Source: Escherichia coli (GTDB taxonomy: Bacteria > Pseudomonadota > Gammaproteobacteria > Enterobacterales > Enterobacteriaceae). Taken from it: DNA of 1,647 bases. The notes below the pieces were generated by a model. It was given only the letters and a program-made list of their open reading frames with translations. It ran no database searches and was not told where the DNA came from. Positions 78 to 1,647 of this stretch are shown one piece after another. Made by a program: the position numbers and the translations under genes. Numbering within the stretch: the first letter of the stretch is position 1; the number at the start of each line of letters is the position of its first letter. The stretch lies in NCBI RefSeq assembly GCF_003334765.1, contig NZ_QOWT01000077.1. The stretch is one strand, 5' to 3'.

Positions 78-264
78 CTGGTTAGGGGTATCGGCGCGCT
101 TGACCTCCTGAGAGCCTCTGTAAGCGTTTTTCGCGCCTTCCATGCCCTGGCGGGCATCTAAAACCCGTTTCGTGCGTCTGAGAGCTTTTGAGCGCGTTTG
201 AGGGGCTATCTGGCGACTCATCCCCAAAAGAACAACACCGGGATCACCGACAACATGCGAGAGG

Positions 265-328
265 TGATCCCGCTCGCCGCAAGTCGATGACCGAGCGTAG
301 CGAGCGAATCGACGAGGAAGCGGAAGAG
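265..328 (-). other. ColE1/pMB1-like block downstream of bom (candidate single-strand initiation / primosome-assembly-like site)
   Basis: The minus strand reads CTCTTCCGCTTCCTCG ... CTCGCTACGCTCGGTC ... GCGGCGAGCGGGATCA. From memory this resembles pBR322/pUC sequence between bom and ori (CTCTTCCGCTTCCTCGCTCACTGACTCGCTGCGCTCGGTCGTTCGGCTGCGGCGAGCGGTATCA), with a 16-bp identical run and roughly 80-85% identity over about 60 bp. It contains a CGCTCG/CGAGCG stem. The functional label is inference. Confidence 0.5.
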
Positions 329-364
329 AACCGGAAGCCACATTGAGCACTTACGCACTGATGC

Positions 365-389
365 GGGGTGTCGGGGTGAAGCCCTGACC
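365..389. repeat. Left arm of 25-bp inverted repeat (inverted partial copy of the bom arm)
   Basis: GGGGTGTCGGGGTGAAGCCCTGACC is the reverse complement of 613-637 at 24 of 25 positions (mismatch at 377/625). The two arms are separated by 223 bp. Confidence 0.9.
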
Positions 390-394
390 AAGTG

Positions 395-432
395 GTAATC
401 GTATCGGCGTGCATGCGCGGTTATACGATTAC
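395..432. repeat. Hairpin-forming inverted repeat (10-bp perfect stems GTAATCGTAT / ATACGATTAC, 18-nt loop containing GCATGC)
   Basis: 395-404 is the exact reverse complement of 423-432. It lies between the left IR arm and the tandem repeats. Confidence 0.8.
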
Positions 433-539
433 ACATCCTGTCCCGATTTCTGAGGCGTTTTAACGGTGAACGGACGGCAAAAACACGATGGAGCTGTTGA
501 ACGTGAAAACCACGAAATCTGGCAAAAATCACGGCTGGC

Positions 540-581
540 GAGGCTTGCATAGGAGTAAGCGAGGCTTGCATAGGAGTAAGC
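540..581. repeat. Perfect tandem direct repeat, 2 x 21 bp (GAGGCTTGCATAGGAGTAAGC)
   Basis: 540-560 and 561-581 are identical. On the minus strand the repeat begins exactly at the predicted nick (GCTTACTCCTATGCAAGCCTC twice). Confidence 0.95.
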
Positions 582-866: not shown

Positions 867-1343
867 ATGTTTATTGATTCAGAAAAACGACTGAAACAAC
901 TTTCAGATGAGGCAAAGAAAAACACCGAGGATCTCGAAGAAGCAAAGAAAAATTCAAGGTTTACACAGGTATCCCCAAAAGGTTGGGAACGTGTTCGAGA
1001 GCTGCTGAAGGATAGCCAAGGCATATCAGCACTGAAGCTGTACTCATTTTTAGCGGAGCATATCGATCCTACGTGTGGCGCTGTCGTTGCGGATCAGCAA
1101 TTCCTAGCTGAAAAACTTGGAGTTAGCAGAAGCACAATTATTCGGTGGCTCAATTACTTAGAATCAAAAAATGCATTAGTTAGAATCCCCGTTGCTGGTA
1201 AGGTTTGTGCGTATGCCCTCGATCCACATGAAGTCTGGAAGGGATACAACACTACGAAAAACCATGCAGCGTTTGTCACTAAAACACTGGTCAACAAAGA
1301 CGGTGATATTCAGCGCCGAATCATGGCCATGTTTTCAAATTGA
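867..1343 (+). CDS. Putative plasmid replication initiation protein (small winged-helix/HTH Rep), 158 aa
   Basis: ATG at 867 with a Shine-Dalgarno AGAGGG at 853-858 (8-nt spacer) and TGA stop at 1341-1343. It is the only long ORF without Arg/Pro/Trp-rich low-complexity composition. The C-terminal half has an HTH-like segment (QQFLAEKLGVSRSTIIRWLNYLESKNALVRIP) typical of winged-helix DNA-binding domains of plasmid initiators. It lies just downstream of an AT-rich tract and palindromic repeats. No HUH or catalytic-Tyr motifs, so not a rolling-circle Rep. The Rep assignment rests on context and motif, not on a homology search. Confidence 0.8.
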   Translation: MFIDSEKRLKQLSDEAKKNTEDLEEAKKNSRFTQVSPKGWERVRELLKDSQGISALKLYSFLAEHIDPTCGAVVADQQFLAEKLGVSRSTIIRWLNYLESKNALVRIPVAGKVCAYALDPHEVWKGYNTTKNHAAFVTKTLVNKDGDIQRRIMAMFSN

Positions 1344-1570: not shown

Positions 1571-1647
1571 ACCAACCGCATGGCTGCCTGTTCCGTGCAA
1601 ATGGGCTTTGCAGGGGGCTGGCGCGGTTCCTGGCGACCTGAAAGCCC
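1571..1647. repeat. Terminal direct repeat, copy 2 (identical to 1-77)
   Basis: Same 77-nt sequence as the window start. Most likely redundant sequence, not a biological repeat. Confidence 0.9.

Follow-up and report, generated by a model that had tools for sequence, protein, structure and literature searches.

A 1,570-bp pKL1-family plasmid of Escherichia coli that joins an AT-rich Rep cassette to a GC-rich module with three oriT-like loci

The cryptic plasmid pKL1 of Escherichia coli is long known and has been on record since 1997 (Burian et al. 1997, 1999, 2003). Here we describe a stretch of E. coli DNA of 1,647 nucleotides (contig NZ_QOWT01000077.1 of RefSeq assembly GCF_003334765.1; the whole stretch is called the window), which is a complete copy of this already-known plasmid and has a modular architecture of the ordinary plasmid kind. 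One part holds the replication gene repA and its upstream control region. The other part is GC-rich and contains three loci that resemble origins of transfer (oriT) of different plasmid families. In pKL1, the origin of replication (oriV) is upstream of rep and has Rep-binding sites and a 16-bp perfect inverted repeat, and RepA with the operator/origin region gives autonomous replication, according to the account in PMC3832669, which cites Burian et al.

Established precedents include plasmid modularity, plasmids with only the ColE1-type mobility site bom (pBR322), relaxase-less oriT plasmids, which are common in E. coli (PMC10123127), and small plasmids that carry two oriTs (pEC156). Approximately 88% of the oriT-bearing E. 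coli plasmids have one oriT, and multi-oriT plasmids tend to encode several relaxases (Ares-Arroyo et al. 2023, PMC10123127). Both F and R64 mobilize pEC156, which has an oriT-F and an oriT-R64 locus; a derivative without both was not mobilized, and small-plasmid oriT loci of the R64 type are functional (PMC4743918). When a donor carried only the IncI1 plasmid pESBL-283 and a 1554-bp pJJ1886-1-like plasmid, the small one was found in about half of the sequenced transconjugants (PMC4382111).

With pEC156 and pKPN2, both small ColE1-type plasmids without mob genes, the window shares the lack of a relaxase and the presence of more than one oriT-like locus from different conjugative families. The R64-type locus of pKPN2 is homologous (window 366-451 against pKPN2 1238-1321, 78%). 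In these two plasmids, replication depends on RNAII/RNAI and an F-type oriT is present; the window uses RepA and has in addition an IncX-type oriT and a ColE1 bom, as assigned below. The likeness to pBR322-type bom-only plasmids and to the pOriT class is an oriT without a relaxase, for which Mob proteins are needed in trans. Plasmids of E. coli that bear an oriT mostly have a single one, whereas the window has loci of three oriT types on 1.57 kb without a relaxase.

The last 77 nt of the window (1571-1647) repeat positions 1-77, so the source is a 1570-bp circle (1-1570, with 1571-1647 as wrap-around) of the pKL1/Col(MG828) family. Full-length matches confirm this. Megablast against a collection of 72,556 plasmid records returned 335 of them, including 1549-1570-bp plasmids of E. 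coli, Klebsiella and Shigella, and pKL1 (NC_002145.1, 1549 bp, typed Col(MG828)) is among these. Identity to pKL1 is 97-100% in all segments except 450-576, the site of a duplication, and 98.5% in the full-length alignment, where the shortfall comes mainly from a 21-bp indel. The window differs by a 21-bp tandem duplication at 538-581 (1570 bp with two copies here, 1549 bp with one copy in pKL1), by single-base changes at two positions of 577-641 and by an indel of 1 nt within the hairpin at 1358-1399. RepA (WP_000469298.1) is identical, and the operator palindromes and gene order are shared. Two records are labelled with Gram-positive hosts: NC_004833.1 (Corynebacterium renale, 1488 bp) and NZ_CP090002.1 (Staphylococcus aureus, 1822 bp). 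Their RepA or their module matches that of these small enterobacterial plasmids at 95-100% identity. The host labels probably reflect contamination or mis-assignment and not a real host range.

An initial annotation, made by eye, had put rep and its upstream region in the low 40s of % GC and the remainder in the high 50s, and the computed values agree with this. The repA open reading frame (ORF; 867-1343) has 43.0% GC (52/37/40% at the three codon positions) and the region 641-866 has 43.8%, against 57.7% for 1344-1570 and 57.2% for 1-640; the whole circle has 51.0%. The best two-part split of the circle separates 672-1468 (43.4% GC) from the remainder (58.9%). Its chi-square of 37 (36 on a coarser shuffle grid) exceeds every one of 200 shuffles (mean 7.8, maximum 25), and a uniform composition is thus not what is seen. 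Finer windows show that GC rises only at approximately 1440-1470, with 1344-1440 still at 46-49%, and that there is a local dip to 47-49% at 441-560. The most GC-rich block comprises 1419-1570 (66%) and 1-109 (64%). For the k-mer comparison, which had been proposed along with sliding-window GC, the relative abundances of dinucleotides were compared; by this distance, the split into the two parts ranks 63rd among 157 equal-size partitions. It does not set the parts apart and is uninformative at this length, and the dinucleotide signature was dropped as a proof of foreign origin.

The GC step does not identify a donor. ColE1 bom has 60% GC and the single-strand-initiation (ssiA)-like patch 62%, inside a 48%-GC plasmid. 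The IncI oriT has 56-58% within flanks of approximately 51%, an IncX4 block has 52% inside a 41.6%-GC plasmid, and the counterpart blocks in plasmids with type T mating-pair-formation systems (MPF_T) have 52-57% amid surroundings of 42-43%. The GC content at third codon positions (GC3) of repA is 39.6%, below the approximately 51% GC of the whole plasmid, and in a plasmid of 65% GC, the gene of a RepA relative has 56% GC and a GC3 of 73%. Since the cis elements are GC-rich in other hosts as well and the RepA homologue has a GC3 of 73%, composition appears to be intrinsic to the element or adjusted to the host, and not to be a donor marker. The proposal that the Rep cassette came from a lower-GC background is unsupported in that form. 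The GC step is best explained as the place where two element types meet that differ in intrinsic composition and in history. As part of the explanation that we think likely overall, GC-richness belongs to hairpin-forming cis elements, and AT-richness to the origin and to a gene with the AT bias typical of small plasmids.

The two parts have different relatives. For direct comparison with the window, database plasmids were retrieved and numbered (L002-L030). The rep module (660-1360) matches 524 plasmid records, approximately 330 of which are near-identical, the remainder being distant relatives on other small plasmids. Positions 1-640 match more than 5000 records, mostly via short pieces. Further searches gave 745 records for 1344-1647, 803 for 60-275 and 660, almost all of them small plasmids, for the block 1470-115. 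The module that runs from 1342 to 1570 and on through 1-641 recurs at 76-95% identity in small plasmids with at least two other Rep types, and also with a diverged RepA relative. In L007 and L008 (module 85-95%), its neighbour is a 146-residue ORF whose 25-30% identity to RepA is confined to the helix-turn-helix region. In L009 (module 90-95%) it stands beside a Rep that is 42% identical to RepA, and in L010 and L012 (module 76-92%) beside a RepL without significant similarity to RepA. The Rep cassettes joined to the same module range from 29 to 46% GC. RepA relatives (60-68% amino acid identity) also exist without the module, in L004 and in L006, a 65%-GC plasmid with a MobV relaxase; a further one, L003, retains only 63 bp resembling bom. 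Every module carrier examined has a Rep gene as well, and no module-only record was seen.

Homology to the module begins at 1342, inside or at most 10 nt from the stop codon of each different rep gene, and it ends at 640-645. The boundaries 640/641 and 1343/1344 that had been drawn by eye coincide with these breakpoints. Divergence is discordant along the plasmid. L030, of the 1552-bp type, has an identical RepA, and its rep cassette (98.4%), IncX-type oriT (98.7%) and bom (100%) are close to those of the window; identity falls to 91.4% in 1-269, 83.3% in 270-363, 78.7% in 364-449 and 75.8% in 450-576. L002 and L005 are collinear with the window throughout. Because unrelated rep genes stand beside the module, RepA relatives occur without it and identity is discordant, the plasmid is a recombinant mosaic. 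These comparisons support two units with different relatives and histories, and the GC step marks their main seam. Given Rep cassettes of 29-46% GC on the same module, they point to many exchanges rather than a single fusion. The chimeric origin first proposed, with a Rep cassette joined to another module, is borne out to this extent. When the two modules were searched separately, they had different relatives (524 records against 660 to more than 5000 for sub-blocks of the GC-rich part).

We consider it likely, from sequence comparison, that the window is a two-unit plasmid of the pKL1 family with a relaxase-dependent cis module carrying three oriTs. Unit 1 (approximately 642-1343) would be a minimal Rep-dependent replicon, made up of an AT-rich origin/operator and repA. 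Unit 2 (1342-1570 plus 1-641) would be a mostly GC-rich and non-coding cis module, shared and exchanged among small enterobacterial plasmids with different Rep genes. It reads as a patchwork of an IncX/TaxC oriT, an IncI/NikB oriT, a ColE1/MbeA bom, an ssiA-like patch and structured blocks (approximately 1419-1570 and 1-269). Co-resident IncI, IncX or ColE1-type plasmids would supply relaxosomes in trans, each nicking its own oriT, with the IncX- and IncI-type oriTs nicked on the + strand and the ColE1-type oriT on the - strand. We infer that the cassettes are exchanged by homologous or oriT-specific recombination between co-resident plasmids. The window has the sequence features of the pOriT class, with three oriT-like loci and no relaxase gene, RepA being the sole ORF with a family match. 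A relaxase-less hitchhiker plasmid is the most likely description.

The gene repA (867-1343, + strand) encodes a predicted helix-turn-helix replication initiator of 158 residues, which is the annotated protein WP_000469298.1 in pKL1. It matches Pfam HTH_36 (E=3.5e-8), and the other ORFs of the window have no family matches. The match to the RepL profile (PF05732) is partial and sub-threshold (E=0.0043, 17 bits); the L009 Rep, the 42% identical relative, carries the NCBI annotation RepL. The RepA protein is 100% identical in hundreds of plasmids, and 329 records have it at an identity of at least 99%. The replication-control/origin region (642-866, + strand), delimited by repeats and a half-site scan, consists of a GC hairpin (640-668), an AT-rich stretch (approximately 669-733) and RepA-operator palindromes (734-781) that contain four TGTCGCATCC-type half-sites, followed by the ribosome-binding site. 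Neither a DnaA box (one mismatch allowed) nor a strict IHF core was found in a scan of 642-866. By analogy with pKL1, RepA would bind the palindromic operators, repress its own gene and initiate replication. We noted that the identity of L002 (NZ_CP100510.1) to 867-1343 climbs from 45-68% at the 5' end of rep to 88-98% at the 3' end. This profile suggests a recombination breakpoint inside rep or strong C-terminal conservation.

The IncX-type oriT-like element (1355-1418, + strand) is just past the rep stop codon. An inverted repeat (1358-1399) is followed by TATCCTG/C (1400-1407), with the predicted nick between 1406 and 1407. The element is approximately 85% identical to IncX4 plasmids, with which it shares the hairpin and the nick motif. 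The more general motif YATCCTGY occurs twice in the window, only at the IncI- and IncX-type sites, where 0.14 occurrences are expected. In the IncX4 plasmid L027 (NZ_CP023905.1), the hairpin with TATCCTGC is also present twice, upstream of the ddp1/taxC relaxase operon (approximately 33165-33215, + strand) and inverted after the pir operon (6345-6390, - strand). IncX plasmids have two oriTs (PMC5587640, PMC11915502), and the two hairpin copies fit this finding; they mirror the two oriTs described for R6K. The interior of the hairpin exists in three alternative palindromic versions across small plasmids, and the stem base and nick motif are invariant. Such a pattern, with a variable interior and a constant stem and nick, is what structural selection would be predicted to produce. 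The unit of hairpin and TATCCTGC is common to the window and to R6K, IncX3 and IncX4 plasmids; the window differs from them in having one copy, no taxA/taxC and another hairpin interior.

The IncI-complex (R64-type) oriT-like element (364-449, + strand) has no counterpart at that position in ColE1. It consists of a 29-nt element (365-393), an inverted repeat (395-432) and then ACATCCTG/T, with the predicted nick between 440 and 441, 8 nt past the repeat. Furuya and Komano reportedly found an 8-nt spacing between repeat and nick region. The element is 91% identical to intergenic DNA beside the nikA-like and relaxase genes of an IncK2/Z conjugative plasmid (L016) and 85% identical to DNA of an IncI-gamma/K1 plasmid (L021), which lies 16 bp from nikA (annotated mobA), with nikB. 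In L016 and L021 the matching DNA begins 15-16 bp from nikA, and the IncI oriT has been located in the 85 bp adjoining nikA (PMC3817090). Records matching 364-449 number 3621, of which 1916 are conjugative. In an alignment of five sequences, CACATCCTGTCC is invariant and the repeat arms (395-432) change in a compensatory way. The window thus has in common with the oriTs of R64, IncK and IncB/O/Z an 85-86-bp element of the kind found by nikA, with an inverted repeat, an 8-nt spacer and a CATCCTG/T nick region. It differs in lacking nikA/nikB in cis, and its arms are nearest to IncK2/Z and not to IncI-gamma. Two alleles of this element occur in otherwise near-identical plasmids (the window against L030 and L002). 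Their repeat arms are GGTAATCG..TATACGATTAC against GGCAAACGGAATA..TTACATTTGC, and the nick region CACATCCTGTCCCGATTTCTG is common to both. The two arm alleles may be adaptations to different NikA proteins.

The GC-rich part had initially been described as a ColE1-like module. This holds for only approximately 160 of its approximately 870 bp, namely 577-641 and 270-366; the remainder consists of the IncI- and IncX-type loci and of blocks shared with IncX4 and MPF_T plasmids, without RNAI or RNAII. The segment 577-641 (- strand) is identical to ColE1 1462-1526 at 62 of 65 positions (95%) and 97% identical to pKPN2 and L013, and thousands of mobilizable plasmids match it. A nic motif of the ColE1 type, CTGG/CTTA, runs on the - strand from 584 to 577, with the predicted nick between 581 and 580. 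The ColE1 nic is reportedly at ColE1 1469-1462 (Varsaki et al. 2003). The ColE1 record reads TAAGCCAG at 1462-1469, and TAAGCCAG is conserved in the window at 577-584. We regard the segment as a bom homologue with a putative MbeA-type nic. The second ColE1-like patch (270-366), which lies between ori and bom in ColE1, is 69% identical to ColE1 1309-1405 and 80% identical to pKPN2. It falls at the location where ssiA, an n'-pas primosome site, would be expected, and a role in single-strand initiation is one that we infer. ssiA is present in pMB1-ori constructs, and ssiB is typically further downstream (Allen et al. 2011, PMC3167613). In L026 and L028, rep genes are flanked by copies of this patch.

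Beyond these two segments, blastn gave no match to ColE1. Rfam gave no RNAI match at E <=1. When 1392-1570 plus 1-269 was aligned with the ori regions of ColE1, pKPN2 and L013, the local scores were at the level of shuffled sequence (z -0.5 to +0.5). With these results, a diverged ColE1 RNAII/ori in this region was rejected. An F-type oriT, as in pEC156, was rejected as well, since blastn of the window against F 65500-67500 gave no match. Blastn between the window and CloDF13 also gave no match to the CloDF13 (MOBC) oriT, and the short near-matches to its nic, namely GGGGTGTCGGGG at 365-376 and, in inverted form, at 626-637, and GGTGGTCG at 1569 of the - strand, are each compatible with chance.

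pKL1 lacks the 21-bp tandem duplication (538-581; 2.1 copies of the unit GCGAGGCTTGCATAGGAGTAA). On its right side, the duplication borders on the ColE1-type nic, and with 2-nt microhomology this edge can be placed exactly at the predicted nick between 580 and 581. Only three records of the plasmid collection have the two-copy unit: two of 1570 bp and one of 1573 bp that belongs to the 1552-bp lineage. Three copies, hinted at by a record of 1591 bp, were not found; that record has one copy. The duplication may have arisen by slippage or by aberrant relaxase-linked termination. A 29-nt element, GGGGTGTCGGGGTGAAGCCCTGACCAAGT, occurs twice in the window in inverted orientation with 93% complementarity, at 365-393 in the IncI-type oriT and at 609-637 in the ColE1 bom. 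It is also carried by ColE1 and by IncI plasmids, and within it is GGGTGTCGGGG, a sequence similar to the published CloDF13 nic GGGTG/GTCGGG. The 29-nt element could be an ancient component common to several oriTs, and inter-oriT recombination could use it as a substrate.

Beyond the oriT-like loci, the module contains a conserved structured block that is near-invariant among its carriers and extends from 1419-1570 across the circle junction into 1-109. As single-stranded DNA, 1342-1647 is strongly structured (z = -4.1 on the + strand and -4.5 on the - strand). Covariation could not be read from the hairpins at 1476-77, where the homologues differ too little and what few changes L018 and L010 show are non-compensatory. 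Partial copies of the block are found near rep or ccdAB genes in 24-34-kb MPF_T plasmids, where copies of 1539-1570 plus 1-146 and of 270-364 flank ccdAB or a RepA-family gene. L018 (pSTEC640_3) carries 1539-1570 plus 1-146 twice, as a direct repeat pair (2145-2322 and 3001-3178), and L028 has copies of window blocks at 21824-21919, 23493-23687 and 23821-23908.

The following block (110-269) is common to IncX4 plasmids and probably replication-associated, as judged from its location there. The region 110-325 is 78-81% identical, over approximately 217 bp, to non-coding DNA in the IncX4 plasmids L017, L024 and L025, approximately 650 bp upstream of pir. An IncX4 oriT at 110-325 is unsupported, its counterpart being upstream of pir and approximately 6 kb from ddp1/taxC. 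Folding of 100-370 as a single strand showed no excess over shuffled sequence (z approximately 0). The locations of the copies of 110-325 and 270-366 suggest a replication-associated role, for example in single-strand initiation.

Terminator-like hairpins are present on the - strand at 1492-1473 and 252-236. The first, with a run of six T (GCTGCCGGAACCGTGGCGGC TCGGTTTTTT, 1463-1492), is on the strand opposite to rep, with three conserved hairpins upstream of it. It would be compatible with a small transcript from the - strand; for such a transcript no promoter was detected and no RNA family matched. Across the window, Rfam gave no family at E <=1 except two chance matches. The nine ORFs of the GC-rich part have no NCBIfam matches. 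A 194-residue ORF of L002 is broken in the window, and 1- and 3-nt indels fall inside a 117-residue ORF. Several database entries place a 'hypothetical protein' or 'replication protein' within the module (window 218-571, - strand; L002 1-585). These ORFs look spurious, having no family matches and being broken by 1-nt indels between relatives. A protein-coding role of the GC-rich part was rejected for the same lack of family matches and of conservation between relatives.

The Col(MG828) type (MOB-suite/PLSDB) is given to plasmids with the pKL1 RepA, a RepL or the 146-residue ORF (L007, L009, L012, L002 and L030). These differently equipped plasmids have only the non-coding module in common. 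It is probably the swappable cis module, rather than the replicon, that holds the typing marker.

How far do other explanations account for the same data? A single lineage without chimerism, in which the GC step comes only from functional constraints (a meltable origin and a gene on one side, hairpin cis sites on the other), is very improbable in our judgement. It would fit the GC-richness of the homologous cis elements wherever they are found, the strong single-strand structure of 1342-1647, the collinearity of L002 and L005 and a dinucleotide signature that does not split the parts. It does not fit the occurrence of the module beside unrelated Rep genes at 76-95% identity or of RepA relatives without it, the differences of up to 24% inside the module between plasmids with a 100% identical RepA, or the sharp homology breaks at 1342 and approximately 641; as an account of plasmid ancestry it is already contradicted. 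A single fusion of a Rep/origin cassette from a low-GC organism to a fragment of a ColE1-family backbone (bom and cis-replication sequences) appears unlikely. The bom and the 270-366 patch are ColE1-like (95% and 69%), the GC3 of repA is low for this plasmid, and its weak relative RepL is a Firmicute plasmid family according to Pfam. Against these stand the small ColE1-like share of the module with no RNAI/RNAII and with IncI- and IncX-type oriTs beside it, the many exchanges implied by Rep cassettes of 29-46% GC, and the RepA homologue with a GC3 of 73%, by which GC fails to identify a donor. There is little to recommend, finally, a GC-rich part that encodes a protein or small RNA or is a second, RNA-primed replicon, even though this would explain its Col(MG828) typing in plasmids with different Rep genes, and even though some records annotate proteins there and the - strand has terminator-like hairpins in a strongly structured region. 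The absence of NCBIfam matches, the disrupted 194- and 117-residue ORFs, the lack of an Rfam family apart from the two chance matches and of ColE1 RNAII/ori similarity, and the Rep gene in all carriers examined, none being module-only, argue against it.

Several points also count against the two-unit plasmid with three oriTs that we favour. The oriT assignments rest on sequence homology and motif conservation. The pJJ1886-1-like plasmid that moved with pESBL-283 is assigned to the 1552-bp class by its size; the class representative L030 keeps an IncI-type nick region, with an IncI-type repeat that is only approximately 79% identical to that of the window. Different evolutionary rates of coding and non-coding DNA may explain part of the discordant identity, though not the unrelated Rep genes. 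The approximately 450 bp of 1419-1570 plus 1-269 could carry the module's real selective value, for instance as a site of single-strand initiation, as an RNA or as another oriT.

A bolder version of the two-unit reading, which we hold only tentatively, is that the module is a portable 'universal hitchhiking cassette' with at least three oriTs of different relaxase families, swapped among unrelated minimal replicons, in which 1419-1570 plus 1-269 is perhaps a fourth oriT or a new single-strand initiation signal. If this were true, the smallest E. coli plasmids would ride on IncI, IncX and ColE1-type systems alike. A compositional mosaic is in itself ordinary among plasmids. What earlier accounts may have left unsaid is that, in this 1.5-kb family, three oriT types are stacked on a module that moves between different minimal replicons. 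Such plasmids, for which 'cryptic' or 'selfish' are the usual labels, are among the smallest and commonest in E. coli and Klebsiella; in the plasmid collection, approximately 330 records carry the exact RepA and 600-800 the shared module. Col(MG828) replicon typing and mobility prediction may read the swappable cis module and not the replicon. If the three oriTs truly work, they would provide a compact natural model for oriT stacking and would explain the wide spread of a 1.5-kb, one-gene plasmid without transfer genes.

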